The notes: generated by a model from the letters alone, not told the origin. DNA of 64,000 bases from an uncultured Alphaproteobacteria bacterium (GCA_902575815.1 CACGTA010000005.1:2213-66212), one strand, 5' to 3'. Numbered from the stretch's first letter, positions 1,845 to 64,000 are shown. Translations and numbers: made by a program.

Positions 1845-1895
1845 TACTGTATATTTATTAATAGAATTCTTAAATTTATACACTATATAGTAATT

Positions 1896-45401: not shown

Positions 45402-45511
45402 TCTTTAAATAAGATTAAATATAATTTATAATCTGTCAAATATATAAGTGGCCCGAACCAATTCAGTTTTTATGTTATTTCTTAATTAGAGTAGTTCTAA
45501 AAACACTTCAT

Positions 45512-45529
45512 TATTGTTTCGAAATAATA
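45512..45529. promoter_or_regulatory. 18-bp near-perfect palindrome TATTGTTTCGAAATAATA in the divergent GMC/SBP promoter region
   Basis: 8 of 9 mirrored pairs around a TTCGAA core, read directly from the sequence. Confidence 0.25.
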
Positions 45530-45598
45530 CCAATTTTTTTTGTTGTATTTTTTAATATGCCGTGTGATGATGAAATTTAATAAATATTGGGAGAGAAT

Positions 45599-46906: not shown

Positions 46907-46927
46907 AGTTTTATTTGTCTAATTATT

Positions 46928-46960
46928 CTGGAGGTTTATAAATAAACCTCCAGATTTTTT
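46928..46960 (+). terminator. Strong intercistronic hairpin plus T-tract between the SBP and permease genes
   Basis: CTGGAGGTTTAT-AA-ATAAACCTCCAG, with 12-nt arms, followed by ATTTTTT. It ends 3 nt before the permease ATG. Confidence 0.7.
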
Positions 46961-46962
46961 AT

Positions 46963-47823: not shown

Positions 47824-47826
47824 ATT

Positions 47827-48654: not shown

Positions 48655-50057
48655 TGCAAGATGTTGAATTAAAAAAATCTAGTTATAATAGAAATGAATG
48701 TTTAGCTGGGATTGCACATATTGGTGTAGGAAATTTTCATAGAGCACATCAAGCTTTGTATGTAGATAAATATCTTAATTCGACTGAAGATAAAAAATGG
48801 GGTATTATAGGTATAAATTTAAGAAAATCTGAAAGAGAAAATTTTAATAATCTTAGAGAAAGAAAAAGTAAATATATTTTAAAAACTATTTCTACTGATG
48901 GTGTTGAAGAATATCAAGAGATACAATCAATATTTTCATTATATGATTGGAGTGCAAATGATATTGAGGCAGAGTTAGTTTTAAGTGATCCAAGTATCAA
49001 GATTGTAACTATGACAGTTACTGAAACAGGTTATTATATAAATGCTGAAGGAGAAATTAATTCAGATTTAGAAATTATAAAAGATAACGTAAATAAAAAA
49101 GAAAAATCAATAATTTTTTCATTTCTGCATAATGCATTAAATTTAAGAAGGGAAAAATGTAATAAACCAATAACCCTATTATGTTGTGATAATATTAGAG
49201 AAAATGGTAAAATGCTTGAGAAATCACTCATTTCTTATTTAAAACTTTGTAATGATATAGAGTTAATAAATTGGATCGAAACTAATGTGACATTCCCCTC
49301 TTGCATGGTTGATAGAATTACCCCAAGATCGCCTAAAAACTTAGCAAATGAAATTAGTGAGAAATTTAAAATAAATGAGAAATCTTCCGTTATGGCAGAG
49401 CCATTTATTCAATGGGTTATTGAAGATAAATTTATTGATGAAAGACCTAAGTTAGAAAAAGTTGGTGTTGAGTTTGTAACAAATATTATACCTTATGAAG
49501 AAGCAAAAATTAGAATTTTAAATGCAGGTCATTTAGTTTTAAGTTATTTTGGTGTTCTCAACAATTATAAAACATACGACCAAACAATTAAGGATGAGCA
49601 ACTTAAAGAATTTTTTTTTAACTTTCAAAGATTAGAAGCTATACCAGCTCTTGGAAATGATATACCTTTTGATTTAGAGGAATATATGCTTGTAATATTT
49701 AATAGATTTAATAATGAAAATATAGCTGATAAACATGAGAGATTAGTGATGGATGGGTCAAGTAAATTTCCTTTATTTGTATTACCAACAATTCAAAGAT
49801 GTTTTGATTTAAAAAAAATTCCGAATCATTGTATTGATGCAATAGCAAGCTGGTATATTTTTATGAAAAAAATTTACAATAAAGAACTCTTGTTTGATTA
49901 TTATGAACCACAATGGGAGATGCTTAAAAAACTTTTACCAGATAAAAAGATTGATGAATTTATAAATAATAAACAATTATGGGGTAAAATGGTAAATAAT
50001 GAAATTTTTACAAAATCATTAAAAAATAAAATTTTAGAATTAATCGGAAAATATTAA
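48654..50057 (+). CDS. Mannitol dehydrogenase family polyol dehydrogenase (mannitol 2-dehydrogenase / D-arabinitol 4-dehydrogenase-like)
   Basis: IAHIGVGNFHRAHQALY N-terminus, CDNIRENG and VDRITP motifs. The ATG at 48654 overlaps the permease stop (TAATG). Confidence 0.8.
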   Translation: MQDVELKKSSYNRNECLAGIAHIGVGNFHRAHQALYVDKYLNSTEDKKWGIIGINLRKSERENFNNLRERKSKYILKTISTDGVEEYQEIQSIFSLYDWSANDIEAELVLSDPSIKIVTMTVTETGYYINAEGEINSDLEIIKDNVNKKEKSIIFSFLHNALNLRREKCNKPITLLCCDNIRENGKMLEKSLISYLKLCNDIELINWIETNVTFPSCMVDRITPRSPKNLANEISEKFKINEKSSVMAEPFIQWVIEDKFIDERPKLEKVGVEFVTNIIPYEEAKIRILNAGHLVLSYFGVLNNYKTYDQTIKDEQLKEFFFNFQRLEAIPALGNDIPFDLEEYMLVIFNRFNNENIADKHERLVMDGSSKFPLFVLPTIQRCFDLKKIPNHCIDAIASWYIFMKKIYNKELLFDYYEPQWEMLKKLLPDKKIDEFINNKQLWGKMVNNEIFTKSLKNKILELIGKY

Positions 50058-50068
50058 GTATTAAAATT

Positions 50069-51667
50069 ATGAGTAGTTATGATTTTATAATTGTTGGTGG
50101 TGGTTCATCAGGATCTGTAACAACAAGTAAATTAGTTAAAAAAGGCTATAAGGTTTTATTAATTGAAGAAGGAAGTAGGAGTAATAGTATTTTTTTTCCT
50201 ATGCCTGGATATTGGATTAAGAGATTAGAGGGTAGTAGACATTTAAAATTTTATAAATCTGTTCCACAAAAACAATTAAACAATAGACAGCATGATATTG
50301 CTCAAGCAAAAATTTTAGGTGGGGGATCAAGTGTTAATGGAATGGTTTACATGAGAGGTAAGCCATCTGATTATAATAGGTGGGAAGATAGCACTGGTGA
50401 TAAAAATTGGAATTGGAATTCAATTAAAAAAAATTTTATTAATTTAGAAAATAATCAGAGATTAAATAACGAGCACCATGGAATTGGTGGGCCTATTGAT
50501 GTATCGTACTCAAGCTACGTAGCAAAAGGTTCTGAATTATATATCAAAACGATGCAAGAATTAGGTGTTCCCTATAATAATGACTTTAATGATGGAGAAC
50601 AACATGGAGTAGGAGTAATGCAATATACAATTGGAAATAGCCAAAGATGTGATGTTGTTAAAGCCTTAATAAAACCTTTAGAAAAAAGAGAGAACTTAAA
50701 AATTAAATTAAATAGTTTAGTAACAAAAATTATAATTGAAAATAATAAAGCTATAGGAGTAGAGGTTTTACATAATGGCAAAATCCAAAAATTTTTTGGA
50801 GATGAAATTATAATTACAGCAGGTGCATTAATCACACCAAAAATTTTAATGCATTCGGGTATTGGCGATAATCAATTGTTAAATAAATTCGATATAAAAA
50901 CAAAAGTGGATTTAAAAGGTGTTGGTAAAAATCTTCAAGATCATCATGAAGTTCCTATCGTGACAAAAACAAAACCAGGTTATGGTTATTATGGTCAAGA
51001 TAAAGGGATTAAAATGCTTTTAAATGGGCTCCAATATGTTTTGTTTAAATCTGGTCCGGTAAATTCAATTGGAGTAGATAGTTGTTCATTTATAAATCCA
51101 GAAAATTTACAAGATACCTTCGATCCAAAAATTAAACTTTATTGTGTCCCATTAATGTATACTGATAGAGATACAAAAGGTGTAAAACCTGATCACGGCT
51201 TGACACTAACCCCCTGTATTATGAATCCAAAATCAAGAGGACAAGTAACAATTGAGTCTTCTAATCCAAAAGATAGACCTTTAGTAAATCCTAATTTTTT
51301 AAGTAATGAAGATGATTTAAAGCTTATACTTAGCGCTGTAAAATTTGCTAGAAGAGTTTTAAAAACAAAACCTTTATCTGATATAATTATAAATGAATAT
51401 TTACCTGGTAAGGAAATAGATAATGATGATGAATTAATTAAATATTGTAAGAAAATGATTAAGACCAATTGGCATCCAGTTGGAACATGTAGAATGGGTC
51501 GGGATGATGATAGTATGGCTGTTTTAAATTCTAGACTTCAAGTAAAGGGAGTAAGAAATTTAAGAGTTTTTGATGTATCTATGATGCCAAACATAGTTGC
51601 TGCAAATACAAATGGTCCTGCTATGGCAATAGCAGATAAAGCAACAGATATTATGTTAGAAGACTAG
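50069..51667 (+). CDS. GMC family FAD oxidoreductase, paralog 2
   Basis: IIVGGGSSGS, GGGSSVNGMVYMRG, HPVGTCRMG. Confidence 0.85.
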   Translation: MSSYDFIIVGGGSSGSVTTSKLVKKGYKVLLIEEGSRSNSIFFPMPGYWIKRLEGSRHLKFYKSVPQKQLNNRQHDIAQAKILGGGSSVNGMVYMRGKPSDYNRWEDSTGDKNWNWNSIKKNFINLENNQRLNNEHHGIGGPIDVSYSSYVAKGSELYIKTMQELGVPYNNDFNDGEQHGVGVMQYTIGNSQRCDVVKALIKPLEKRENLKIKLNSLVTKIIIENNKAIGVEVLHNGKIQKFFGDEIIITAGALITPKILMHSGIGDNQLLNKFDIKTKVDLKGVGKNLQDHHEVPIVTKTKPGYGYYGQDKGIKMLLNGLQYVLFKSGPVNSIGVDSCSFINPENLQDTFDPKIKLYCVPLMYTDRDTKGVKPDHGLTLTPCIMNPKSRGQVTIESSNPKDRPLVNPNFLSNEDDLKLILSAVKFARRVLKTKPLSDIIINEYLPGKEIDNDDELIKYCKKMIKTNWHPVGTCRMGRDDDSMAVLNSRLQVKGVRNLRVFDVSMMPNIVAANTNGPAMAIADKATDIMLED

Positions 51668-53132
51668 AAGCGATTTTTTTGTTTGATTGGTATATATCTT
51701 TCCAAACCTTATATCTCTTTAAAAGCAATTCGATTTTTTCTTCTTGTGGTTTAAATTTTCTACTAACTACAATATCTTTAATTATATTTTTATTAGGAAC
51801 ATCTTTATCAACATACATTGCTAATCTTGAGACTCCTAATGCTGCTCCGTATTCACTCTGATCACAAACACTAAGTTTTCTTTTTAATATCGTAGATAAA
51901 AGTTTTATCCAAAATAAACTTTTTGACCCTCCACCAACCATAAAAATATTTTCAAAGTTTTTATTAACTTTCAATATTGAGTTTACTCCATCTAAAATTC
52001 CAAAACTTACACCTTCAATTACTGCATACTGTAAAACTGTTGAATTAGTTGTGGTCTTAATTGAATGAAATGAACCCCTAATATATGGATTATTATGAGG
52101 TGTTCTTTCTCCAGATAAATATGGCAAAAAATAGGAAGAGTTATTTACTAAGTTGTTATCTGAATAGAAATTCTCTACATTATTAAGTGTATCAGCAATT
52201 GAAGTATTAGTAACGGCACAAATCCAATCTAAACAATTACTAGCACTTAACATTACAGACATTAGATGCCATTTGTTTGGTAAACAATGACAAAATGAAT
52301 GCACAGCATCCCCAATGTTACTCAAAGAATTTTTTGTAGGAGTAAAAAAAACTCCTGATGTTCCTAGGGATATAAATGATTGATTTTCATTGATAATACC
52401 CATTCCAGTTGCTGCAGCTGCGTTATCACCTGCTCCACCAACAACTTTAATTTCATTAATAAAATTGAATCTGTCTTTAAAATCTCTTTTTAAAATTCCA
52501 GTCTCCTCATTTCCTTCTACAAGAGTTGGCATATGTTTCTCTTCCAAATGTGAGCAAGATAAAAGTTGATTAGACCATTTTCTTTTTTTTACATCCAACC
52601 ATAATGTTCCTGAGGCATCTGACATTTCAGAAAAAAATTCACCAGTTAGAACAAATCTTAAGTAATCTTTAGGTAGTAAAACTTTAAAAATTTTTTTAAA
52701 ATTATCTATTTCATTGTTTTTTATCCAATTGATTTTTGGTGCAGTAAAACCAGGCATGGTAATATTCCCTGAAATTGATCGTACATCAAAGCTTTGTTTT
52801 TCAAATTCTTCACATTCTTGATGTGATCTTGTATCATTCCAAAGAATACATGGTCTAATTACATTCCCATCCTTATCTATTAAAGTAGCCCCATGCATAT
52901 GACCTGATATACCTATAGAAATAGTTTGCGAAAACTCTTTTGGTTTTTTTAACTTTAAAGCTTCAAAGCATTCCATTGTTGAATTAATCCATTCTTGTGG
53001 ATTTTGTTCACTAAAACCATCTTTTGGAGATTGTACAGTGAGAGTTGAGTTAGCTGTGGCAAGGATTTTTTGGTTTTGATCAATTAAAATCATTTTAATT
53101 GATGAAGTTCCAAGATCAATTCCAATAAACAT
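51651..53132 (-). CDS. xylB: Xylulokinase (FGGY carbohydrate kinase)
   Basis: MFIGIDLGTSSIK, GGAGDNAAAATG, MVGGGSKS. Confidence 0.8.
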   Translation of the reverse strand: MFIGIDLGTSSIKMILIDQNQKILATANSTLTVQSPKDGFSEQNPQEWINSTMECFEALKLKKPKEFSQTISIGISGHMHGATLIDKDGNVIRPCILWNDTRSHQECEEFEKQSFDVRSISGNITMPGFTAPKINWIKNNEIDNFKKIFKVLLPKDYLRFVLTGEFFSEMSDASGTLWLDVKKRKWSNQLLSCSHLEEKHMPTLVEGNEETGILKRDFKDRFNFINEIKVVGGAGDNAAAATGMGIINENQSFISLGTSGVFFTPTKNSLSNIGDAVHSFCHCLPNKWHLMSVMLSASNCLDWICAVTNTSIADTLNNVENFYSDNNLVNNSSYFLPYLSGERTPHNNPYIRGSFHSIKTTTNSTVLQYAVIEGVSFGILDGVNSILKVNKNFENIFMVGGGSKSLFWIKLLSTILKRKLSVCDQSEYGAALGVSRLAMYVDKDVPNKNIIKDIVVSRKFKPQEEKIELLLKRYKVWKDIYQSNKKIASSLLT

Positions 53133-53204: not shown

Positions 53205-54395
53205 TTAAAGACTTTTAAAAATATTATTATAGAAATCTTTTTTAATATTTTTGTCTGCATCTAAAATTTGCATCATTAAAACTGCAGATAAATCATTAAT
53301 AGGATCAACTAAGAAATACGTAGCTGCATAACCTGACCACCCAAATTCACCAATCACACCATATTTGTTTTGAGGTGTGTTATTCATCAAAACTCTAAAT
53401 CCTAAGCCCCATCCATAACCATCTAAATCATTTTCATAGTTTTCATCTTTAATTGTATTTAATGCTGTTATTTCAATTGGGAATAAGTTTTTACTTAATG
53501 AGTTAGTTCGTATTGATTTCAGAGTTTCTAAATTAATCAAGGGTTTTGCATTTTTATCTTTGCCATCAACTAGCATTTTAGCAAACTTGATATAATCTTC
53601 AGCAGTTGAATATAATCCGTGTCCTCCTCTAGAGAAATTTTTGTTATTTGAAGGATATCCATATAAAATTAGTTTTCTTTTGTCGAAATTTAATTCAGTT
53701 AATTTTGATTTAACACTATTATATTCAAACGTTTCAACTAAATGTTTATTTTTATCTTCACTAATAAAGAAATTTGTTTCATTCATTTCTAAGGGAAAAA
53801 ATATATTTTCTTTTAGAATATTTAATATTTTGTCTTTTGTTACAACTTCAAGAATTCTAGCTAAAATATCAATAGAAATTGAGTAATGCCAGTTTGATCC
53901 AGGTTCATAAAGAAGTGGTAAATCTGATATACTATCAATTTCCTCCTCTAAACTTCGGGAAGATGAATGAAATAACTTATTGTTTTCATAAGCTTCAGCC
54001 AAAAAATTATTGCTGCTGTTATAAGTAAAGCCTGCTGTATGTTGCAAAAGTTGTCTTATAGAAGGAATATTATCAACTTGTTTGGTTTCATCAATTTTAC
54101 TATTTAAAGATTGAAGTTTTTTTAGATTTTTAAATTTTGGTAGGTATTTATCTATAGTATCATCAAGAGACAAAAATTGTTTATCTATTAATTGCATTGC
54201 TGCAAAACCGATAATTGGTTTAGTCATAGACCAAATTCTATAATAAGAATTTTTTTTTAATTTATTCTCACAATTTAAATCATTAAAACCTATAACTTCA
54301 TGATATCTTTTATTTTTATAATTAATTATCCATTCAGCACCATTACATCTTCCAGCATCAATATGTTTTTGAAAATCTAATTTAATATTATCCAT
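53205..54395 (-). CDS. Beta-lactamase-related serine hydrolase (class C / EstB-like)
   Basis: The SxxK motif is in WSMTKPIIG. Length and pattern fit the beta-lactamase/transpeptidase-like fold. No signal peptide is seen. Confidence 0.7.
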   Translation of the reverse strand: MDNIKLDFQKHIDAGRCNGAEWIINYKNKRYHEVIGFNDLNCENKLKKNSYYRIWSMTKPIIGFAAMQLIDKQFLSLDDTIDKYLPKFKNLKKLQSLNSKIDETKQVDNIPSIRQLLQHTAGFTYNSSNNFLAEAYENNKLFHSSSRSLEEEIDSISDLPLLYEPGSNWHYSISIDILARILEVVTKDKILNILKENIFFPLEMNETNFFISEDKNKHLVETFEYNSVKSKLTELNFDKRKLILYGYPSNNKNFSRGGHGLYSTAEDYIKFAKMLVDGKDKNAKPLINLETLKSIRTNSLSKNLFPIEITALNTIKDENYENDLDGYGWGLGFRVLMNNTPQNKYGVIGEFGWSGYAATYFLVDPINDLSAVLMMQILDADKNIKKDFYNNIFKSL

Positions 54396-54401
54396 AAAAA
54401 A

Positions 54402-55400
54402 CTATAGTAAACTTTGTATTTTATCTACGAGACCTGAATTAATATTTCTGGGACCAGTATCTATTCTATTTTTGTGTCGACGCTGTCCTGGTAAACGAAC
54501 ACCGTCTAACGAAGTCATCTGATCAAAAAATTTGTTAGCATGTTCGTTCCAATTTTTACCCGCTATCAGCTCAGGAGATAAAGCCATTATAAACTCTCCC
54601 CCTCGGGCTGGACCTCCATCATTATTATCTTCTTTTTTTGCTTCAAAACTAAACAAATCGCCAACAAGACCTGCTGCCAATAACTCAATCATCATTGCAA
54701 TCGCAGAACCCTTATAATCTCCAAAGGTCAAAAGTACACCACCATTTGCTATTTGATTTGGGTCATCAGTTTTTTCTCCATCTTTATTTAATCCTGTTCC
54801 AAATGGTACTTTATGACCGTCTCTAGCTGCAACCTGAACTTCACCCATGGCCATTGTGGAAGTCGCCATATCATAAACAACGGGAGTATTATTTTTTCTA
54901 GGCCAAGCAAATGATATGGGATTGGTCCCAAATAATGGTTTTTTTGCACCCGCTGGAGCCACGCTAGGCTTATATGCCGTGCAAGCAATTCCAATTAAAT
55001 TATTTTCAGCTAAAGCTTCAGTCTCATGCCACAAAGCGGCAAAATGATGAGTATTCGTAATTGTTAAAACACCTACTCCATGCTTACTTGTAGTTTTTAT
55101 TAATTCAGGCAATCCAACTTTAATAGCTACTGGAGCAAAACCATAGTCTCCGTCAACACGAATTGCATTTTGAGTAAGATAATTATTGGTAGGACGAGAA
55201 ACAGCATTTACTTTTTTACTCTTTAGAGAAGCTACATACCCTGGAATTCTAAATAAACCGTGAGAAACACTTCCGTCTCTCTCTGCATGAGTTACCGTAG
55301 TAGAAACACAGTCAGCGTTAAGATCATCACAGCCATGCTTGGTAAGAGCTTTATAGGCTAAATCATATACTTTTTCTAACTCTAAAGGTATCGTATCCAT
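54402..55400 (-). CDS. Ldh2-family (malate / L-lactate / sulfolactate / Pip2C-reductase type) NAD(P)H oxidoreductase
   Basis: DGSVSHGLFRIPGY, FGTNPISFAWP, ATSTMAMGEV, FGDYKGSAIAMMIELLAG pattern. Confidence 0.75.
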   Translation of the reverse strand: MDTIPLELEKVYDLAYKALTKHGCDDLNADCVSTTVTHAERDGSVSHGLFRIPGYVASLKSKKVNAVSRPTNNYLTQNAIRVDGDYGFAPVAIKVGLPELIKTTSKHGVGVLTITNTHHFAALWHETEALAENNLIGIACTAYKPSVAPAGAKKPLFGTNPISFAWPRKNNTPVVYDMATSTMAMGEVQVAARDGHKVPFGTGLNKDGEKTDDPNQIANGGVLLTFGDYKGSAIAMMIELLAAGLVGDLFSFEAKKEDNNDGGPARGGEFIMALSPELIAGKNWNEHANKFFDQMTSLDGVRLPGQRRHKNRIDTGPRNINSGLVDKIQSLL

Positions 55401-55433
55401 TTACTTTTATTTAATAATTTATATTATAAAGTT

Positions 55434-56804
55434 ATGGATAGAGGAATATTAGATGATTTAAAAGACCTTTTGCAGGAAAGAATTTCCTTTTCTGAAAGTG
55501 TTAGAAATAATCATGCTAAAGGTGAGGATGCTTATGATCCTGTACTGCCAAAAGCGGTTTTGTTTCCAGAAAATAACGAAGAGTTATCAAAAATTTTGAA
55601 AATATGTAATCAATTTAAAGTACCCGTAACCGCATATGGAACTGGAACATCACTTGAGGGTCATGTAGTTGGCAATGAAGAAGGTTTTACAATATCTATG
55701 GAAAATTTTAATAAAATAATTTCAATTAATGAACAAGACTTTGACTGTCGTGTTCAAGCTAATGTATCTCGTGAACAGCTTAATGAAACACTTAAAGATA
55801 AAGGTGTTTTTTTTCCTATTGATCCTGGTGCTAATGCATCTTTAGGTGGTATGACTTCGTGTTCTGCATCAGGCACAATGGCTGTTAGATATGGAACAAT
55901 GAGAACGACTGTTCTAGGTCTGACTGTAGTTTTAGCGAATGGGGATATAATAAAAACTGGAACAAGAGCTAAAAAAACTTCTGCAGGATATAATTTAACC
56001 AATCTTTTTGTAGGCTCTGAAGGTACACTTGGAATAATTACTGAAGTTCATCTTAGACTATCACCAATCCCTGAAAGTATTATGAGCGCTGTATGTCAGT
56101 TTCCTGATCTTGACTCAGCTGTCTTAACTGCACAAGAAATAATTCAATACGGTGTACCAATTGCAAGAGTAGAGTTATTAAATAAAGATCAGATGGATAT
56201 AAGTATTAAGTATTCTAAACTCGAGAATTTAGAGAGTTTACCAACACTTTTTTATGAATTTCATGGAAGTGAAATTTCAAATAAAGAATCTATAGATGTG
56301 GTTGAAGAAATCTCTAAAAATAATAATGGTAGTGAATTTAAATGGGCGGTAAACACAGAAGAAAGAAATAAAATTTGGAAAGCAAGACATAATGTTTATT
56401 ATTCGGTTAAGGCGCAGGGGGATGATGTTAGGGTTTACGCTACTGATGTTTGTGTACCTATTTCAAATATTGTAGAGTGTATTAAATTTGCAGAAAATGA
56501 ACTTCAAGGTACTGGACTAAAAGCTCCAATGGTTGGTCATGTAGGTGATGGAAATTTTCATGTAACTATTGTGTATGATCCAAACAAAGAAAATGAATAT
56601 CAATACATTAGAGAGTTTAGCAATAAACTAATTGATAAAGCTCTAGAAATGGATGGAACAATTACAGGTGAACATGGAATAGGTCTTCAAAAAAAGGAGT
56701 ATTTATTAAAACAACATCCAGATAACATTCCTTTAATGAAATTAATTAAGAAAAGCTTTGATCCTAATAATATATTAAATCCTGGCAAAGTTTTTGACTT
56801 ATAA
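55434..56804 (+). CDS. FAD-linked oxidase (D-lactate dehydrogenase / GlcD-like)
   Basis: FAD-binding PCMH domain (VTAYGTGTSLEGH, GSEGTLGIITE) and C-terminal GEHGIG...DPNNILNPGK. Confidence 0.8.
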   Translation: MDRGILDDLKDLLQERISFSESVRNNHAKGEDAYDPVLPKAVLFPENNEELSKILKICNQFKVPVTAYGTGTSLEGHVVGNEEGFTISMENFNKIISINEQDFDCRVQANVSREQLNETLKDKGVFFPIDPGANASLGGMTSCSASGTMAVRYGTMRTTVLGLTVVLANGDIIKTGTRAKKTSAGYNLTNLFVGSEGTLGIITEVHLRLSPIPESIMSAVCQFPDLDSAVLTAQEIIQYGVPIARVELLNKDQMDISIKYSKLENLESLPTLFYEFHGSEISNKESIDVVEEISKNNNGSEFKWAVNTEERNKIWKARHNVYYSVKAQGDDVRVYATDVCVPISNIVECIKFAENELQGTGLKAPMVGHVGDGNFHVTIVYDPNKENEYQYIREFSNKLIDKALEMDGTITGEHGIGLQKKEYLLKQHPDNIPLMKLIKKSFDPNNILNPGKVFDL

Positions 56805-56807
56805 AAA

Positions 56808-57854
56808 TTAATATTTTGGATTATTTATATCTTCATTATAAGCAAAAATTGCAGGACTGCCTCCCGTATATATGAAAATTACATTATCACCTTTTTTTAT
56901 TACTCCTTTTTGGACATAATCTATAAGAGCTGCAAAACCTTTTGAAGTATAAACTGGATCTAAAATAATTGATTCTTTTTTTGCTAAAAGCTTCATAGCT
57001 TCTATTCCTGCTTTTGTTGTAGCACCATATTTTTCACCCACATAATTATTATCATGGTTAATCATTTCATCAGTAAATTTTATATTAATATCAAGCAATT
57101 TAGCTCCTTCATTACAAATTCTTGCTATATCTTTTTTAATATCCATTTCCCAATAAACTGGAGAAATACCCTGAATGCGAGTAGGCCAATTTAATATTTT
57201 AGCTCCTAATACACAGCCCGCTTGTGTCATATTAGCTGCAGTTACAAATAAATGATCTGCCATAAAATTTTGTTCTTTCATTTGCAAATCAATTTCAGCC
57301 ATAGCATTTGCATAACTAATTCCAGCAAGTGTAGTATCTTCTTCTCCAAATCCTCCGTATATTAGTAAAGGCTTTCGACCCTCTTTTATTAATTCTTTGT
57401 ATTTTCTATCTAAATGTTTTGGTATTTCTTCTAAATTTTCACCTTCAACTACCTCAACGTTCGCCCCTAAGATACTATATAATAAAAAATTACCCTGCAT
57501 TAACTTTCCCTTTATTCCATGCATCAATACTAAATAACTATCTAAATTTAGTTTATTAGCTGCAGCCACAGCTTGACGGCAAAAATTAGATTGAGAGGCA
57601 GCACCGGTAAGAATACAATCATAATTATCTGATAACGTTTTAGCCATTATAAATTCTAAATGTCGTGTTTTATTACCTCCAAAAGCGAGTGCGGTACAAT
57701 CATCTCTTTTAATATATAAATTAATATTAAGTTCTTTAGAAATATTAGGGGCATATTCAAGAGCAGTTGGAAGCTGAGCTAAATAAATTCTTGGAATTTT
57801 ATTTATTTTTGTAACTAATTCTTCAACTGATAGCGGATTAAATTTACTATTCAT
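56808..57854 (-). CDS. PLP-dependent enzyme of the ACC deaminase / D-cysteine desulfhydrase / cysteate sulfo-lyase family
   Basis: YIKRDD...FGGNKTRHLEF (PLP-Lys motif) and C-terminal YTGG. Confidence 0.75.
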   Translation of the reverse strand: MNSKFNPLSVEELVTKINKIPRIYLAQLPTALEYAPNISKELNINLYIKRDDCTALAFGGNKTRHLEFIMAKTLSDNYDCILTGAASQSNFCRQAVAAANKLNLDSYLVLMHGIKGKLMQGNFLLYSILGANVEVVEGENLEEIPKHLDRKYKELIKEGRKPLLIYGGFGEEDTTLAGISYANAMAEIDLQMKEQNFMADHLFVTAANMTQAGCVLGAKILNWPTRIQGISPVYWEMDIKKDIARICNEGAKLLDINIKFTDEMINHDNNYVGEKYGATTKAGIEAMKLLAKKESIILDPVYTSKGFAALIDYVQKGVIKKGDNVIFIYTGGSPAIFAYNEDINNPKY

Positions 57855-57884
57855 TTATTGTGTAAAAATTTTATTTTTTTTAAA

Positions 57885-59618
57885 TTAATGACTATGTCTT
57901 TTTACTTCTGAACCTCTTTTACCAATTAGAAAATCAAGATCTGCACCTTTATCAGCTTGCATTACATGATCTATATACATCTTTTGATAACCTCCAGAAA
58001 TCTCAGGTAAAATTGGATTATAATTATCTAAACGATTTTTAATTATTTCATCATCAACTTTTAAATTCATAGTACCTTGATTGACATCTATTTCTATTTG
58101 ATCACCATTTTGAACTGCTGCTAAAGGCCCTTTTACAGCTGCTTCAGGAGCAGTATGAAGGATCACTGTTCCATATGCTGTTCCGCTCATTCTAGCATCA
58201 GATATTCTAATCATATCTCTTACACCTTTCTTTAAAAGTTTTTGTGGAAGACGCATGTTTCCAACCTCTGCCATACCTGGATAGCCTTTCGGTCCACAAT
58301 TTTTCAAAACTAATATAGAATTTTTATCTACTTCTAAATTTGGATCGTCAATTTTTTCATGAAACTCTTCTACACTTTCAAAGACAACTGCTTGACCGGT
58401 ATGTTTCATTAATTCTGGTGATGCAGCTGATGGTTTTATAATTGCACCATTTGGCGCAATGTTTCCTCTAAGAATTTTAATACCTCCATTTTTTGTTAAT
58501 GGATTATCAAATTCTTTAATAACTTCATTATTCCAACATTTAGCATCTTTGTTATTTTCACCAATACTTTTTCCATTTACAGTTAATGCATGTTCTTCTA
58601 GTAAATTTTTTTCAAGTAACCTTTTTATTACAACAGGTACTCCCCCTGCATAATAAAAATCTTCCATCAAATATTTACCAGAAGGTTGGAGATTTACTAG
58701 TGTAGGAATACCTTCCCCATATTTATTCCAATCTTCTAAATCCAGATCTATTTCCATTCTTCCTGCAATAGCCGCTAAATGAATAACAGCATTAGTCGAA
58801 CCACCTATTGCTCCATTAACCTTTATTGCATTTTCAAATGATTTTTTTGTTACAATTTTAGATATAGTTATATTTTCTTTAACCATCTCAACAATTCTTT
58901 TTCCTGACATATGGGCTAATGCATATCTTCTTGAGTCAACAGCAGGTATTGCAGCATTACCAGGTAATGACATACCTAGTGCTTCGACCATTGATCCCAT
59001 TGTTGATGCTGTACCCATTGTCATACAATTACCTTTTGATCTACTCATTGAAATTTCTGCATTAATAAAATCTTCTTCTGTAATTACGCCTGCGTTTAAA
59101 TCAGCGTCAAGTTTCCAAACACCAGTTCCAGAACCTATAGTTTTTCCCTGATGGTGACCATTAAGCATTGGGCCACCTGAAACTCCAATTGTAGGAAGGT
59201 CAACACTTGCTGCACCCATCATTAATGAAGGTGTTGTTTTATCACAACCCATTAATAGCACGACTCCATCAATAGGATTGCCTCTTATTGCTTCTTCTAC
59301 GTCCATGCTTGCCAAGTTTCTAAATAACATTGCTGTTGGCCGAAGATTAGACTCACTTGCTGAAAATACTGGAAATTCAAGTGGGAAACCACCAGCTTCA
59401 TAAACACCTTTTTTAACGGACTCAGCTATCTCTCTAAAATGGCCATTACACGGTGTTAATTCTGACCAAGTATTGCAAATTCCAATTACAGGACGTCCAT
59501 CAAATAAGTGATTTGGATGTCCTTGATTTCGCATCCACCCCCTATGAATAAATGTATCTCTTCGATGTGATTTAGAATTATACCAATTAGAAGATCGAAA
59601 TTTATTTTTTTTATTCAT
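57885..59618 (-). CDS. IlvD/Edd family sugar-acid dehydratase (arabinonate/xylonate-dehydratase-like)
   Basis: RPVIGICNTWSE..PCN, GCDKTTPS, SGTGVW, GNCMTMGTASTM, DARMSGTAYG. Confidence 0.85.
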   Translation of the reverse strand: MNKKNKFRSSNWYNSKSHRRDTFIHRGWMRNQGHPNHLFDGRPVIGICNTWSELTPCNGHFREIAESVKKGVYEAGGFPLEFPVFSASESNLRPTAMLFRNLASMDVEEAIRGNPIDGVVLLMGCDKTTPSLMMGAASVDLPTIGVSGGPMLNGHHQGKTIGSGTGVWKLDADLNAGVITEEDFINAEISMSRSKGNCMTMGTASTMGSMVEALGMSLPGNAAIPAVDSRRYALAHMSGKRIVEMVKENITISKIVTKKSFENAIKVNGAIGGSTNAVIHLAAIAGRMEIDLDLEDWNKYGEGIPTLVNLQPSGKYLMEDFYYAGGVPVVIKRLLEKNLLEEHALTVNGKSIGENNKDAKCWNNEVIKEFDNPLTKNGGIKILRGNIAPNGAIIKPSAASPELMKHTGQAVVFESVEEFHEKIDDPNLEVDKNSILVLKNCGPKGYPGMAEVGNMRLPQKLLKKGVRDMIRISDARMSGTAYGTVILHTAPEAAVKGPLAAVQNGDQIEIDVNQGTMNLKVDDEIIKNRLDNYNPILPEISGGYQKMYIDHVMQADKGADLDFLIGKRGSEVKRHSH

Positions 59619-59649
59619 AAAAAAAGTCTTATCTAATTAAAGAAAAAAA

Positions 59650-60537
59650 TCAAATTTTAAATTTATTATCTTCAATACCAGGAGTATTAACGTTTAGTGC
59701 AAATAAGCTACCATCATATTTATTTTTACCTGAGTTATTAGCAGTAGTAATAAATAAAGTTTTAAGATCACTTCCTCCAAATACACAATTTGTTACATTT
59801 TCAACAGGTAGCTCATAAATTTGATCAACCCTGCCAATTGGATCAATTTTCACAACACACGAACCACCCCAACGACAATTCCAAATAAAACCATCACTAT
59901 CAATGGTTGATCCATCTGGCGCGCCTCTATCAAAATCAAAAAAAAATTTTTTGTCTGATAAACTGCCTTCATCTAAGTTAAATTTGTATTCAAGTAATGA
60001 TCCTTCAGTTGAGTCAGCAAAATAAAATTTTGCATTATCTGGACTCCAAACAAATGTATTAGGTATACCAAGATTTGTTTCAACTATGTTTAATTTATTT
60101 TCTGATAAACAATATAAAGTTCCAGATTTAGTATTTAAAGTCTTTGAGCTTCCATCGTTATTAATATTGTTTTGCATTGTGCCAAACCAGAGTCTTCCCT
60201 TTGCATCGGATGCACCGTCATTTGATCTGTTAGTTAAAATATTTTCTTCTACCTCTTTTATTATTTCATATTTTTTAGTTTGAAAATTGAATTTGTTTAC
60301 TCCGTTGTTTGAAACTAAAGCAATTTCACTGTTTGAAATAATTGATGATGCTGTTACAAATTCAGGTAATTCAAAGGTTTCTAATTTTTCACTTTGTAAA
60401 TTTATTCTGAATAAAAGTGTTTTTGGCTTTATATCAAGCCAAAATAAACTTTGATTAATTGAAGACCAAGTAATACCTTCACCTAAACTATTTTTTACAT
60501 CTTTGTATAATTCAACCTTACTCACAACAAAGATCAA
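59650..60537 (-). CDS. SMP-30/gluconolactonase/LRE family lactonase
   Basis: LGEGITWS...LFWLDI, DAKGRLWFGTM, PNTFVWSPD, APDGSTIDSDGFIWN, VFGGSDLKTLFITTA. The start is non-ATG (TTG at 60537 or GTG at 60525). Confidence 0.8.
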   Translation of the reverse strand: MIFVVSKVELYKDVKNSLGEGITWSSINQSLFWLDIKPKTLLFRINLQSEKLETFELPEFVTASSIISNSEIALVSNNGVNKFNFQTKKYEIIKEVEENILTNRSNDGASDAKGRLWFGTMQNNINNDGSSKTLNTKSGTLYCLSENKLNIVETNLGIPNTFVWSPDNAKFYFADSTEGSLLEYKFNLDEGSLSDKKFFFDFDRGAPDGSTIDSDGFIWNCRWGGSCVVKIDPIGRVDQIYELPVENVTNCVFGGSDLKTLFITTANNSGKNKYDGSLFALNVNTPGIEDNKFKI

Positions 60538-60570
60538 TATAATAAAAATTTAAAATTTATGAAGATAAGA

Positions 60571-61575
60571 TTAAAGATAATGTGCTTTGTCTTTAATACG
60601 AGCCATTACTTCTTTTGTTGCTTCTTCAGATCCATCATGAAATGTACCCATTAGTTTGTCTAAAAAACTAGTATTACCTCCTGAATAATTACATTCAAAG
60701 TATTTGTGATGGATATAGTGCATATAATCACCAGTTGGTATTGATACACCATTTTTGAAAGTCATTTTTTCATATCCAGTATGTCCAGGTGTTGGAGCTA
60801 ATCCAGCATGAAAAACATGATACATTGCAACAAGAGGGTGAGAAGGAATAATCCAGTGTACTAAAATACCTGAAAAATATAACAGATGTTCTATTGGATG
60901 CATAGACATACCAGACCAAGCGCCTGTATTTGTATTACGGTGATGAACTTTATGAGCAATTTTATAAAGTGGTGCCCAGTGCAATAATCTATGAGTTAAA
61001 TAAAAATGTGCGTCTCTTATAAATGGAACAAGAAAGAACATAAAACAACAATATATTGGATAAGCCTCCCAACTTACATATGGGATTATTTGATTTGCAA
61101 ATGCCCAAAATGTAATTACTTCATAAGCTGTCCATAATGGAATAGCACTACAAAAAGTATAAAATAAGTTATCTTTAGTTTGATCATTAAACAAAAACGT
61201 TGAATTATTTTTTTCCAAAGGTCGTGGATTATATTTAAATGAAGTTCCTTGTGTCTTCAGTCTTAAATGAAAGAAGCCTGTCCAAAGCAAAATAATAACT
61301 GCATTTCTGAAAAATATATAGGATATCCAACCTATTTCAAAATTCTTCATTGTCTCTAAAGAAGGAGTCAAAAAAATATATGTAGCAATTGTTATTGCTG
61401 CAAAAACAAAAGTCCATGGAAAAAAAATTCCTGGAAATTTAAAAAAATATTTTAAAAATTTTATTGGATTAAAAAATATATCTTTAGGTGGATTAATACT
61501 AATTGTGCCAAAAGGTTTCCAATGACCTCTTTTATCTCTTGTGCCAAAATCATTATCATTTAACCGATTAGTCAT
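60571..61575 (-). CDS. Fatty acid hydroxylase / sterol desaturase superfamily membrane di-iron protein
   Basis: Histidine boxes HFYLTHRLLH, HKVHHR and HYIHHKYFECNY, plus multiple TM helices. Confidence 0.75.
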   Translation of the reverse strand: MTNRLNDNDFGTRDKRGHWKPFGTISINPPKDIFFNPIKFLKYFFKFPGIFFPWTFVFAAITIATYIFLTPSLETMKNFEIGWISYIFFRNAVIILLWTGFFHLRLKTQGTSFKYNPRPLEKNNSTFLFNDQTKDNLFYTFCSAIPLWTAYEVITFWAFANQIIPYVSWEAYPIYCCFMFFLVPFIRDAHFYLTHRLLHWAPLYKIAHKVHHRNTNTGAWSGMSMHPIEHLLYFSGILVHWIIPSHPLVAMYHVFHAGLAPTPGHTGYEKMTFKNGVSIPTGDYMHYIHHKYFECNYSGGNTSFLDKLMGTFHDGSEEATKEVMARIKDKAHYL

Positions 61576-61613
61576 AAAGCACTTATAGTATATTTTGAGT
61601 AAAAAAAAAGAGA

Positions 61614-62630
61614 CTAAATTGTCGTATCTGGAACCTTCACATCAATAAAATGATTTTTATCTTTTGATTGTTTAAATATTGCTGGAATAATTGTCCTATA
61701 TGCAGAAATTAATCCCCTATGCGGTTTTGGCATTTGATTTCTTACAACTTTGTGAAATTTTTTTAGATTATGGCATGGAATTTTTGGGAACATATGATGT
61801 TCGATATGATATTCCATATTAGAATACAGAAAGCTAAAAAAGGGATTTATTAAAACCGTTCTTGTACTTTTTCTATGATCTTTAATATTATCAGCTAGTC
61901 CAGCATGTTGTGTCATTCCCAAAAGCATTAAAATTGTGTTACCATAAAATGGCGGTAAAATTATCATTATGATTGGTAACCATGATTGTAATAAAACTGA
62001 AGATAAAATGACAAGCAGCCAGAAACCAACATATAATCTTGAACTATTTACAATTTTTTTTATTTCTTTTTCAGGTACGGTAATTTTTACTACAGGAGTA
62101 ATTATTCCAATTGAATGTTTTATAATTTCAAAGTGAGTAAAATGTCTTATTTTTTGAATATTGATGATTGGCCCAAGTGGTAAAAAGTTAAGTAGAAATC
62201 TAATTGGCTCAGTTGGTTTAGGACTATTATTTTCATAATCATATACTTCTTCGTGTGTAAATATTGTGTAGGTATGATGATGATAATGACTCCACTTCCA
62301 ACGTACTGCTTCAAAACCTCCAAGTAGTGAAGTTATATGATAAAATAATTTATTTAAAGTTCTCGATTTAAAATATGTTTCATGATTTGTTTCATGTTGA
62401 ATGCTAATCACTTTACAATAAAAAATATTACCATAAAGAAGAAGTGCTGGGATTGACCACAACGTACCCCAAGTAGCAATACATAAATATCCACTTAATA
62501 TCAGAGCAACAACAAATAAAGATATATCTATTATACCTTTTATATCTGATCTTTTAGATAGTTCTTTTAGAGTTTTTTTATCTATTGTTGGTTTGTACCA
62601 AGATTGTAAATCAACTTCACCTGCAAACAT
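61614..62630 (-). CDS. Membrane fatty-acid-desaturase family di-iron protein
   Basis: Histidine boxes HETNHE, HYHHH and HIEHHMFP, plus TM helices. Confidence 0.75.
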   Translation of the reverse strand: MFAGEVDLQSWYKPTIDKKTLKELSKRSDIKGIIDISLFVVALILSGYLCIATWGTLWSIPALLLYGNIFYCKVISIQHETNHETYFKSRTLNKLFYHITSLLGGFEAVRWKWSHYHHHTYTIFTHEEVYDYENNSPKPTEPIRFLLNFLPLGPIINIQKIRHFTHFEIIKHSIGIITPVVKITVPEKEIKKIVNSSRLYVGFWLLVILSSVLLQSWLPIIMIILPPFYGNTILMLLGMTQHAGLADNIKDHRKSTRTVLINPFFSFLYSNMEYHIEHHMFPKIPCHNLKKFHKVVRNQMPKPHRGLISAYRTIIPAIFKQSKDKNHFIDVKVPDTTI

Positions 62631-62633
62631 AAA

Positions 62634-63461
62634 TTAAAATCTTTCCGACAGTTTTAAAAATTTTTCAAATTCATTTTCGTCAATATTAACTGTGATTTTA
62701 GGATCATTGAAATTTTGATTTACTGTGTCATTATGAAATTCTTTGAATGCACTTACTCTTTCAGCTTGAAGTTTTGCAAATTCTTTTTTAAAATCTCTGT
62801 AAATTCGTGCATGTCTTGGAATTTTTCCTTGAGTATAGCCGAGTACATCATTAGCAAACAGATATTGCCCATCACATCCAGAACCACTTCCCATTGAAAG
62901 AGTCATAATATCAACTTTTTTTGTAATTACTTCAGCAACTTTTGGAGGAACGACTTCGAGCTCAACACCTATAACTCCTGCCTCTTGTAACTCTAAAGTA
63001 TGTTCTAAAATTCTAATGGCTTTATCAGCTGTTTTACCTTGTGCAACAAATCCACCAATCCATGTAGCATTTCCTGGAACTAAGCCGACGTGACTGTTGA
63101 TCGGAACAAATTCATCTCTTAGAGCTCTTAACCATTTATAACTCCAATTACCTCCGTAGATTACATCTGCACCAATATCTAAATACTTATGTGAAAGTTT
63201 CATTGCTTCATACTCAGAAGCAACTTTTACTGCGCCTCCAGATTGCATAAAGCAGGTTGGTGCTGCTTCACGTATTCTTTTAAGTTCATCAAAAGAATTA
63301 TAAATACCAAACTGTGGAGCATCATGAGAAGTACAAATCATATCAATGCCAGCCTCTTCAGCTGCTGCAGCTTCTTCAGCATTATGCACAAACATAACAC
63401 TAAGTTGTCTTTTACCTTTGCATTGTAAGTAATCGTAAACCGTCAGTTTTTTTTTACTCAT
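62634..63461 (-). CDS. PanB-like (ketopantoate hydroxymethyltransferase family) protein, divergent paralog 2
   Basis: SHVGLVPG, LEVVP, SMGSGSGCDGQYLFANDVLG and PRHAR align with the PanB blocks GHLGLTPQ, LECVP, GIGAG..DGQILV.HD and PKFAK. The GDS and KIEGG blocks are replaced. Confidence 0.65.
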   Translation of the reverse strand: MSKKKLTVYDYLQCKGKRQLSVMFVHNAEEAAAAEEAGIDMICTSHDAPQFGIYNSFDELKRIREAAPTCFMQSGGAVKVASEYEAMKLSHKYLDIGADVIYGGNWSYKWLRALRDEFVPINSHVGLVPGNATWIGGFVAQGKTADKAIRILEHTLELQEAGVIGVELEVVPPKVAEVITKKVDIMTLSMGSGSGCDGQYLFANDVLGYTQGKIPRHARIYRDFKKEFAKLQAERVSAFKEFHNDTVNQNFNDPKITVNIDENEFEKFLKLSERF

Positions 63462-63479
63462 AAAATCTCCAAAAAATAT

Positions 63480-63797
63480 TTAACCTATTTTAATGAAAAT
63501 TTTATCATTATCAACTTTAACTGGGTATGTTTTTAAATCCTCACAAGCTGGAGGGCTGAGTGCTTCTCCAGATTTAATATTAAAAATTCCTTGGTGCATT
63601 GGACATTCAATTTCATCATCCATAACCAAACCATCTTCAAGATGTACCGCCTCATGTGTACAAATTCCATCAGTAGCGTAAAATCCGTCTGTTAACCTAT
63701 AAACACAAAAAGTTTTGTCTTGATGATCAAATCTGATGAGATCCTCTTCTTCAATACTATCTGTAGAGCCTACTTCAATCCAATTTTCTTCAGACAT
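63480..63797 (-). CDS. Rieske [2Fe-2S] ferredoxin (small soluble type)
   Basis: CTHEAVHL...CPMHQGIF, which is the CxH...CxxH motif. At 105 aa it has the size of BphF/TodB-type ferredoxins. Confidence 0.85.
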   Translation of the reverse strand: MSEENWIEVGSTDSIEEEDLIRFDHQDKTFCVYRLTDGFYATDGICTHEAVHLEDGLVMDDEIECPMHQGIFNIKSGEALSPPACEDLKTYPVKVDNDKIFIKIG

Positions 63798-63848
63798 AGA
63801 CTGTATATAATATTTATTTTATGAAAATAAATACAAAAAATTAAATTA

Positions 63849-64000
63849 TTATCTTTGTATAAGTTTATTTAATTTTTGATTCTGATCCGAAAGAATTTGT
63901 TTATCTACAATAGTATTTTTCTCAATTAATTTAGATGTTATTCTAATATCACGACCTATTTTTCCTACAATTCCAACACCACATGCTCCTCTTATTTTAT
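63849..64000 (-). CDS. 3' end of an unidentified gene, truncated by the window edge
   Basis: The open frame reads ...KIRGACGVGIVGKIGRDIRITSKLIEKNTIVDKQILSDQNQKLNKLIQR and ends in a double stop, with the first TAA at 63849-63851. It is co-directional with the downstream operon. The family cannot be determined from 50 aa. Confidence 0.35.
   Translation of the reverse strand, partial: KIRGACGVGIVGKIGRDIRITSKLIEKNTIVDKQILSDQNQKLNKLIQR

Follow-up and report, generated by a model that had tools for sequence, protein, structure and literature searches.

The rhizopine-inducible unit mocDEF is required for rhizopine catabolism (PMC10107442). Its products have been described as a 'ferredoxin oxygenase complex' (Bahar et al. 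1998, as quoted in PMC10107442), and MocD has been presented as an oxygenase resembling desaturases, with 3-O-methyl-scyllo-inosamine as its substrate and scyllo-inosamine as its product (PMC2593844). In marine Flavobacteriia, a P450 acting with a ferredoxin and a ferredoxin reductase oxidatively demethylates 6-O-methyl-D-galactose, and the formaldehyde that is released needs dedicated handling (PMC6292453, PMC9400963, PMC10033563). Here we compare with these systems a gene cluster in a 64,000-nucleotide stretch of DNA (hereafter the window) from an uncultured Alphaproteobacteria bacterium (GCA_902575815.1, CACGTA010000005.1:2213-66212). Seven complete minus-strand genes at 56808-63797 encode, in order, a soluble Rieske ferredoxin, a protein derived from PanB (PanB-like), an FA_desaturase-family membrane protein (Des), an FA_hydroxylase/sterol-desaturase-family membrane protein (Hyd), a sugar lactonase, an IlvD/Edd-family dehydratase (IlvD) and a pyridoxal-phosphate (PLP) enzyme, and they follow the truncated end of a ferredoxin reductase gene. 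The trio of Rieske ferredoxin, Des and reductase is a member or variant of a known system that has been defined only genetically, and the cluster as a whole probably serves the oxidative demethylation of imported methylated sugars or cyclitols.

As in MocDEF of Sinorhizobium and Rhizobium, genes for a MocE-family Rieske protein, a His-box oxygenase of the FA_desaturase family and a flavoprotein reductase stand together in a carbohydrate or cyclitol context. By contrast with MocDEF, the window operon adds an FA_hydroxylase-family oxygenase and a PanB-derived partner, and no MocR, MocA, MocB or MocC gene is present in the window. Its downstream genes encode a lactonase and an aldonate dehydratase rather than an inositol pathway, and its host is a marine oligotroph. 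The flavobacterial P450 demethylase is likewise a three-component, NAD(P)H-driven monooxygenase within carbohydrate-utilisation loci, where the sugar methyl group is removed as formaldehyde and C1 (one-carbon)-handling functions are encoded nearby. However, its catalyst is a soluble haem protein instead of an integral-membrane di-iron His-box protein, its ferredoxin is not of the Rieske type and it has no PanB-like protein; its activity has been demonstrated, whereas we infer that of the SAR11 cassette. The order of an SMP-30 lactonase followed by an IlvD/Edd dehydratase recalls the Weimberg and Dahms pathways, among whose enzymes is the L-arabinonate dehydratase of R. leguminosarum, and from which the operon differs in carrying a PLP enzyme and no sugar 1-dehydrogenase, 2-keto-3-deoxy-acid dehydratase or aldolase, or semialdehyde dehydrogenase.

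We found no description of the SAR11 cluster, or of the pairing of a PanB-like gene with a desaturase gene, in the searchable literature. What appears to be undescribed is that a second oxygenase family has been added, that a PanB-derived partner co-diversifies with the oxygenases, and that in SAR11 the cassette is attached in modular fashion to sugar-acid, cyclitol and pentose pathways. The published MocR 'moc-box' was not found in the R. pisi locus (L045; L numbers denote the loci compared here), so that the rhizobial loci, which are LacI-controlled paralogous units, are not thereby shown to be the rhizopine locus.

The oxygenase cassette and its genomic setting

The Rieske gene (63480-63797, minus strand; Pfam Rieske) encodes a soluble [2Fe-2S] ferredoxin that scores 137.8 bits against the MocE_fam_FeS model TIGR02377 and so passes its curated cut-off of 136.15. 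The CxH...CxxH ligands lie at residues 46-68, and a ferredoxin encoded on R. leguminosarum pRLG202, named MocE-family by PGAP, shares 60% identity with the protein. Upstream by 51 nt is a truncated open reading frame (ORF) at 63849-64000 on the same strand, cut by the end of the window, of which 49 codons of the 3' end remain. Its translation ends in ...KIRGACGVGIVGKIGRDIRITSKLIEKNTIVDKQILSDQNQKLNKLIQR, and the reductase encoded immediately before the Rieske gene in the related locus L008 has a matching C-terminus. Because the gene at this position in L001-L004 carries Pyr_redox_2 and Reductase_C domains, we assign the truncated ORF as a MocF-like ferredoxin reductase. In L001-L004, all from one SAR11 lineage, an HxlR-family regulator gene (9188-9580, minus strand) lies between the reductase and Rieske genes. 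Bacillus HxlR is formaldehyde-responsive, and the gene gives a weak hint of C1 release.

Des (61614-62630, minus strand) is a MocD-like, integral-membrane di-iron oxygenase by family, with a Pfam FA_desaturase score of 115.8 bits. The boxes HETNH, HYHHH and HIEHH and the hydrophobic segments can be read from its translation. Over its full length it is 34% identical to the rhizobial Des encoded beside MocE, the comparator being that protein and not an authenticated MocD sequence. Against the NCBIfam equivalogs for lipid desaturases Des reaches only 27-45 bits, with cut-offs of 380-500. The order Des-MocE-ferredoxin reductase is found in about 25 Rhizobiaceae genomes and in Paenibacillus. In a locus of Jiella pelagia (L095, NZ_CP114028.1, 2911-4473), the Des-like and MocE-like frames form a single stop-free ORF whose Des part is missing from the PLSDB gene table, making it a candidate fusion, pseudogene or annotation gap.

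Hyd (60571-61575, minus strand), also a His-box di-iron membrane oxygenase by family, scores 71.2 bits against Pfam FA_hydroxylase, and its translation contains the motifs HFYLTH, HKVHH, HPIEH and HYIHH. Homologs with 46-53% identity are found in Rhizobium, Bradyrhizobium and Jiella. In Bradyrhizobium a sterol-desaturase-family gene is followed by Rieske and FAD oxidoreductase genes, and in the marine Jiella pelagia a LacI gene precedes the series Hyd-Des-MocE-ferredoxin reductase-sugar phosphate isomerase/epimerase-Gfo/Idh/MocA. By analogy with MocDEF, the Rieske protein, the reductase and the two His-box membrane proteins are best read as a putative MocDEF-type three-component oxygenase, with Des and Hyd as probable alternative catalytic components on one Rieske/reductase chain. 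An earlier reading of this DNA, made from the sequence alone (the sequence-only reading), knew of no described pathway that couples a lactonase-dehydratase core to such oxygenases and a dedicated Rieske ferredoxin. The trio of Rieske protein, desaturase and reductase, however, corresponds to MocE, MocD and MocF, for which a role in the O-demethylation of rhizopine has been proposed.

The ORF listing gives intergenic gaps of 18, 3, 38, 33, 31 and 30 nt in gene order, in agreement with the seven complete minus-strand genes 3-38 nt apart of the sequence-only reading, and Pfam supports the family label given there to each of the seven proteins. Its suggestion of a Pelagibacterales relative also holds, since Pelagibacteraceae, Candidatus Pelagibacter and marine alphaproteobacterial single-cell genomes supply the closest homologs; the G+C content of the window is about 30%. 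The genes had further been taken as one transcription unit, and the neighbourhood survey found them syntenic in related SAR11 single-cell genomes and metagenome contigs, which share the block Rieske-PanB-like-Des-(PanB-like)-Hyd-SGL-IlvD-PALP (SGL and PALP being the Pfam families of the lactonase and the PLP enzyme). Recurrence of the same block in SAR11 relatives indicates that the gene order is not a matter of chance. Spacing and conserved order suggest that the seven genes are probably co-transcribed. A promoter scan of 55300-64000 returned 48 promoter-like sites against 48.2 expected, no excess over shuffled sequences in this AT-rich DNA; a terminator scan of the same AT-rich interval gave no signal exceeding shuffled controls, and an Rfam scan of the whole window gave no match.

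The closest relative is L008, a locus of single-cell genome AG-909-O11; its PanB-like protein and the operon copy of the window are 96% identical. The gene order there is Des-ferredoxin reductase-Rieske-PanB-like-Des-PanB-like-Hyd-SGL-IlvD-PALP, and synteny with the window stops at the PLP gene. Because the truncated ORF encodes the tail of a ferredoxin reductase, the operon continues past the end of the window, and the genes seen here are the distal portion of a longer operon in SAR11. Alignment with L008 places the site of the relatives' second PanB-like gene (about 0.85 kb) at the AT-rich 38-nt spacer between Des and Hyd (61576-61613), with 86-87% DNA identity on both flanks. The second PanB-like gene of L008 (8951-9836) has no counterpart in the window, and no gene remnant was found in the spacer. 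Given that the order PanB-like-Des-PanB-like-Hyd is found in L001, L008, L009, L010, L024 and L025, the lineage of the window has most likely lost this gene while Hyd stayed intact. Hyd may thus not depend strictly on a PanB-like partner of its own, or the loss may be recent.

Downstream of Hyd, the lactonase (59650-60537, minus strand; SMP-30/gluconolactonase family) scores 228 bits against Pfam SGL. Its best solved relative is 7plb of the Smp-30/Cgr1 family (138 bits), which we take to be the Caulobacter xylonolactonase. IlvD (57885-59618, minus strand; ILVD_EDD_N and ILV_EDD_C) reaches 816-825 bits against solved sugar-acid dehydratases (8ej0, 5j83/5j84 and 9evv, of which 9evv bears the name L-arabinonate dehydratase), whereas its scores against true dihydroxy-acid dehydratases are much lower. 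It scores 915 bits against the NCBIfam subfamily PRK06131 and 835 against the L-arabinonate dehydratase equivalog, narrowly below the cut-off of 882, so that we call it L-arabinonate-dehydratase-like. Judged by family membership, lactonase and dehydratase make up a predicted oxidative sugar-acid segment. The PLP enzyme (56808-57854, minus strand; Pfam PALP) is of fold-type II and the ACC-deaminase/D-cysteine-desulfhydrase family. It falls below the cut-offs of all NCBIfam equivalogs, the best being CuyA with 277.6 bits against 450. Its best solved relative is the D-cysteine desulfhydrase 7ysk (185 bits), and its homologs in annotated plasmids, at most 38% identical, are every one named D-cysteine desulfhydrase. 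The gene also follows IlvD in L005-L007 and L008, but it does not do so in L009 or L012. An alpha,beta-elimination on an amino-aldonate would be a speculative role for it.

A scan of 185,579 species-representative genomes yielded 80 loci, annotated by local phmmer and hmmsearch, 18 of which are SAR11-type; the protein clusters of the cassette hold from hundreds to more than 1000 metagenomic member sequences each. Genes for a ribose-type ATP-binding cassette (ABC) transporter (binding protein, permease and ATPase) lie beside the cassette in 17-19 of 19 SAR11-type loci, often in two sets, and a LacI regulator is encoded at the locus in rhizobia and Jiella. The downstream module varies. In the window and L008 it is lactonase-IlvD-PALP, while L005-L007 and L011 have SGL-SDR-two MR_MLE-DHDPS-IlvD-PALP and L001 has a GMC oxidoreductase, a second ABC transporter, IlvD and DHDPS. 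L016 carries Gfo/Idh/MocA with an IolD that passes its equivalog cut-off (769 bits against 715), and L014 a xylose isomerase. DHDPS-family genes flank IlvD in relatives only. SAR11 is the most abundant marine heterotroph, and its carbohydrate use is only partly understood; the cassette occurs commonly in this group, is present in multiple copies within genomes and is set before differing sugar and cyclitol pathways.

Similar architecture extends beyond SAR11. In Paenibacillus cellulosilyticus (L092, NZ_CP054613.1, 3179-14678), a plant-polysaccharide degrader and tractable Gram-positive, a Des-Rieske-ferredoxin reductase trio without a PanB-like gene stands in a sugar-oxidation cluster with sugar ABC transporter, SDR, MR_MLE, zinc alcohol dehydrogenase, Amidohydro_2, aldose epimerase (mutarotase) and aldo/keto reductase genes. 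MocDEF-type architecture with sugar transporters and sugar or cyclitol genes is thus found in SAR11, Rhizobiaceae, Jiella, Bradyrhizobium and Paenibacillus, and single genomes hold up to four or five oxygenase paralogs in carbohydrate islands. The placement of His-box membrane oxygenases beside a lactone/aldonate pathway is therefore a recurrent cross-phylum pattern and no accident of the window. This wider synteny fits the general idea, already put forward in the sequence-only reading, that a sugar or polyol bearing an alkyl group or some other modification is broken down oxidatively. A lipid-linked substrate, also offered there, finds no support, as what is conserved beside the cassette are ABC transporters of the monosaccharide type and LacI regulators.

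The PanB-derived protein and its partners

The PanB-like gene of the operon (62634-63461, minus strand) matches Pfam Pantoate_transf over profile positions 91-256 only, and its product falls below the cut-offs of both PanB models (114.4 bits against 272 for PRK00311, 101.4 against 207.55 for TIGR00222). An AlphaFold (AF2) model built from a 38-sequence alignment has a predicted local distance difference test score (pLDDT) of 92.8 and a predicted template-modelling score (pTM) of 0.84. The top 28 Foldseek matches of this model are PanB structures, with template-modelling (TM) scores of about 0.7 and 22-26% identity, followed by phosphoenolpyruvate (PEP) mutase and methylisocitrate lyase. Structure prediction therefore classifies the protein as a PanB TIM barrel. 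Besides the barrel, it has in common with PanB (EC 2.1.2.11) the conserved segments beta5-beta8, where the counterparts of E. coli H136 and E181 lie.

The active site has changed. We aligned 101 PanB-like members from the fetched loci with the E. coli and M. tuberculosis PanB proteins. The positions of E. coli D45, D84, K112 and E114, which we take to be the Mg2+ and ketopantoate ligands, are lost in 101/101 members; G, A, S or T stands in place of D84, and 84 of the 101 have Tyr in place of K112. By contrast, every member keeps H124 and E169 (H136 and E181 in E. coli), and two residues before E169 a new glutamate, E167, is likewise invariant and creates an ExE motif. In canonical PanB a metal ion is required for enolisation (PMC7770189). 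PanB-like genes also differ from panB in adjoining oxygenase genes and not panC or panE. A Rhizobium gene that is very probably a family member has been tested in vivo. In R. etli CFN42, a panB mutant is still a pantothenate auxotroph in spite of RHE_PE00443, a 'second panB' on p42e, and RHE_PE00443 did not complement the mutant even when constitutively expressed; CD-search recognised only five of the 12 active-site residues and no domain for metal binding (PMC3082293). In the region of p42e that we examined, the one panB-annotated gene is the fourth in the series LacI | Des-MocE ferredoxin-FAD oxidoreductase-PanB-like. By size and position it is very probably RHE_PE00443. Taken together, the PanB-like protein has the PanB fold and is not a ketopantoate hydroxymethyltransferase.

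What PanB-like genes travel with is informative about their role. In SAR11-type loci, 24/31 PanB-like genes lie within 400 bp of Des or Hyd, and over all loci 51/96 lie within 3 kb. About 25 Rhizobiaceae genomes have the unit Des-MocE-ferredoxin reductase-PanB-like behind a LacI gene; rhizobia also have a second, paralogous unit, LacI | Des-MocE-PanB-like, with a carbohydrate ABC transporter directly after it. In other SAR11 loci (L072, L074, L076 and L079), two PanB-like genes are flanked by three genes for PhyH Fe(II)/2-oxoglutarate dioxygenases, so that the family partners soluble PhyH dioxygenases as well; the full array, at 8307-14885 in L074 and also seen in the other three, reads PhyH-PhyH-PanB-like-PanB-like-PhyH-BNR protein-major facilitator superfamily transporter. 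A PhyH gene also precedes a PanB-like gene in an unrelated metagenome-assembled genome (L028, 9074-10777).

Paralogs pair with particular oxygenases. PanB-like genes of group A stand with Des of group A or B and those of group D with Hyd; those of group C stand with Des of group C, a pairing seen in three genomes of differing arrangement. One very divergent PanB-like copy is matched by a Des that is itself very divergent. Such co-diversification speaks for recognition of a specific substrate or a specific oxygenase by the PanB-like protein, and against a role tied to the dehydratase. That the protein is a generic formaldehyde scavenger is unlikely to be the whole story, given that paralog groups follow particular oxygenase groups, and a non-catalytic, substrate-presenting subunit is less likely, given that some paralogs pair with soluble PhyH. 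A search for domain fusions of the Rosetta-stone kind returned tandem or chimeric artefacts and true PanBs only.

A second PanB-like paralog lies in the window at 996-1904 (minus strand), 60 kb from the operon. It is 41% identical to the operon copy, its active site is degenerate in the same way and its subgroup pairs with PhyH, lying between PhyH genes in other SAR11 genomes. It is divergent from a DUF4396 membrane-protein gene (1896-2345, plus strand), of which no homolog was found in any fetched locus. Separately, a gene for a 147-residue glyoxalase/VOC-family protein recurs in seven loci (L014-L019 and L023), and in L014 (9540-9980) it stands directly upstream of the PanB-like gene.

Proposed pathway and rival explanations

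We hold with moderate confidence that the cluster serves the import and oxidative demethylation of methylated sugars or cyclitols by a MocDEF-type oxygenase joined to a sugar-acid pathway. By analogy with MocDEF, NAD(P)H would reduce the flavoprotein reductase, from which electrons would pass to the soluble MocE-family Rieske ferredoxin and on to the di-iron centres of both Des and Hyd. The oxygenases would hydroxylate a small hydrophilic carbohydrate imported by the monosaccharide-type ABC transporter. The likeliest target would be the methyl group of an O-methylated sugar or cyclitol; its hydroxylation would yield a hemiacetal, from which the free sugar and a C1 unit would be released. The sugar would be oxidised to a lactone by a dehydrogenase encoded elsewhere, the SMP-30 lactonase would open the lactone, and the L-arabinonate-dehydratase-like IlvD would convert the aldonate to a 2-keto-3-deoxy acid. 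O-demethylation appears the most economical choice because it is the sole role proposed for MocD, and because marine bacteria demethylate 6-O-methyl-galactose oxidatively by means of P450, ferredoxin and reductase.

The PanB-like protein might keep the C1 half of PanB chemistry and pass a hydroxymethyl or formaldehyde unit to tetrahydrofolate or another acceptor, a role that we put forward as our best guess, though with low confidence. In a fuller form of this idea, which we rate as rather unlikely, the family would be a PanB-derived enzyme class that has lost Mg2+-dependent enolisation, kept the C1 chemistry and become paired with hydroxylases of three unrelated families, FA_desaturase, FA_hydroxylase and PhyH, from which it would transfer the unit to tetrahydrofolate. 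If so, SAR11 and rhizobia would feed sugar methyl groups into folate-linked C1 oxidation without free formaldehyde, and the multi-paralog demethylase cassettes would be a turnover route for methyl sugars in marine dissolved organic matter.

Several observations weigh against the overall demethylation scheme. The PLP enzyme fits nowhere in it, and Pfam annotation finds no sugar 1-dehydrogenase among the seven operon genes, nor do these include a dehydratase, aldolase or semialdehyde dehydrogenase that would convert a 2-keto-3-deoxy acid. O-demethylation chemically needs no second enzyme, which makes any role for the PanB-like protein a guess, and no folate or C1 genes were seen adjoining the cassette. 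The window lacks a Hyd-associated PanB-like gene though Hyd is intact. Conversely, 38 of the 80 PanB-like loci, mostly from Verrucomicrobia and Acidimicrobiia, have no Des or Hyd neighbour. Those of Verrucomicrobia have housekeeping neighbours, and nothing is shared by more than seven of the 38 except an opposite-strand shadow ORF. MocDE(F)-like units without a PanB-like gene are found in Paenibacillus, Caballeronia, Jiella and Bradyrhizobium. Since the promoter and terminator scans were uninformative, co-transcription rests on spacing and synteny. Finally, the rhizopine MocDEF model, from which we argue by analogy, is itself a genetic one.

A serious rival, though one we consider distinctly unlikely, is that the oxygenases hydroxylate the C-methyl group of a branched or deoxy carbohydrate, such as a C-methyl-inositol or a 6-deoxy sugar, and that the PanB-like protein then cleaves off the hydroxymethyl branch next to a carbonyl by retro-aldol reaction or transfer. 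PanB makes and breaks a C-CH2OH bond alpha to a keto group (PMC7770189), and H124 and E169 on the catalytic face are kept, with the new invariant E167 beside them; the metal ligands for enolisation, however, are gone. Paralog-specific pairing suggests that the PanB-like protein contacts the substrate skeleton, but units that lack its gene exist. Gfo/Idh/MocA dehydrogenases, possible makers of the carbonyl, are frequent neighbours, and fucose/rhamnose-type pathway genes accompany the cassette in L005 and Paenibacillus. Against this, O-demethylation is the reaction described for MocD, the sole oxygenase precedent, and no pathway of such a kind is known. The sequence-only reading had instead suggested that the PanB-like protein could be the missing class II (HpcH/HpaI-like) 2-keto-3-deoxy-acid aldolase, which would complete a Dahms-type pathway after IlvD. 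The protein does share an operon with the lactonase and dehydratase, no other candidate aldolase is encoded there, and its fold belongs to the PEP-mutase/isocitrate-lyase TIM-barrel superfamily. Yet the metal and keto-acid ligand positions of PanB are lost in every aligned member, the HpcH_HpaI Pfam family gives no match at E <= 0.01 and no HpcH/HpaI aldolase is among the 50 best Foldseek matches of the model. Adjacency tracks oxygenases, PhyH included, and not IlvD; the rhizobial four-gene unit has no dehydratase, and relatives have a DHDPS-family gene beside IlvD for the step after dehydration. We therefore set the aldolase assignment aside as very unlikely.

A sulfonate route, which we find as improbable as the aldolase, would take the lactonase and IlvD as parts of a sulfo-Entner-Doudoroff pathway, the PLP enzyme as a cysteate sulfo-lyase and two neighbours beyond it, an Ldh_2-family dehydrogenase and a GlcD-like oxidase, as acting on sulfolactate. 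The best NCBIfam match of the PLP enzyme is indeed the D-cysteate sulfo-lyase CuyA (277 bits) and that of the Ldh_2 protein is L-sulfolactate dehydrogenase (175 bits), but both lie far under their cut-offs (450 and 500), and IlvD scores high against solved sugar-acid dehydratases, one of them named for L-arabinonate. The stretch holds no sulfo-aldolase, sulfolactaldehyde dehydrogenase or sulfite exporter, and neither neighbour is a conserved partner of the operon, the synteny with L008 ending at the PLP gene. The least probable explanation is that Des and Hyd are ordinary lipid-modifying desaturases or hydroxylases whose position among sugar genes is incidental. Both are membrane proteins of the Pfam families FA_desaturase and FA_hydroxylase, as such a role would have it. 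By contrast, the lipid-desaturase equivalogs are missed by hundreds of bits, a dedicated Rieske protein and reductase stand with sugar transporters or LacI in several phyla, and the four or five paralogs that a genome may hold lie within carbohydrate islands.

Methylated sugars are a recognised component of marine dissolved organic matter. If the cassette is a MocDEF-type demethylase, it would provide an enzymatic route for such sugars and a second solution to sugar demethylation, unrelated to P450. The same four-gene unit stands under LacI on chromids or plasmids of the tractable S. meliloti and R. etli, which makes the proposal directly testable; the outcome would give the R. etli 'second panB' a function and MocDEF-type oxygenases their first biochemistry.

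Other genes of the window

Within 13 kb of the operon are two GMC oxidoreductases (5-12 kb away), a sugar ABC transporter, a D-arabinitol-dehydrogenase-like gene and a xylulokinase gene. They form a polyol/sugar island (43782-53132). The transporter comprises two permeases and a 439-residue ORF without family match, presumably the binding protein. The D-arabinitol-4-dehydrogenase-like enzyme scores 408 bits, below its cut-off of 600, while the xylulokinase scores above the cut-off of TIGR01312. The sugar-oxidising step that the operon lacks might be supplied by the GMC enzymes.

The interval that separates the island from the operon (53205-56804) holds genes for a beta-lactamase-family serine hydrolase, whose best match is the methyl acetate hydrolase AcmB (153 bits against a cut-off of 550), for the Ldh_2-family dehydrogenase (175.6 bits to L-sulfolactate dehydrogenase) and for the GlcD-like FAD oxidase, which is convergent on the PLP gene with 3 nt between the stop codons. 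These are not conserved partners, since synteny with L008 ends at the PLP gene. At the other end of the window, genes for a metallophosphoesterase (3321-3974) and an Lhr-type DEAD/H helicase (3955-6405), both on the minus strand, are followed on the plus strand by those for a metallo-beta-lactamase/RMMBL protein (6388-7377) and an ATP-dependent DNA ligase (7374-8942), and this cluster at 3321-8942 looks like a nucleic-acid repair module.

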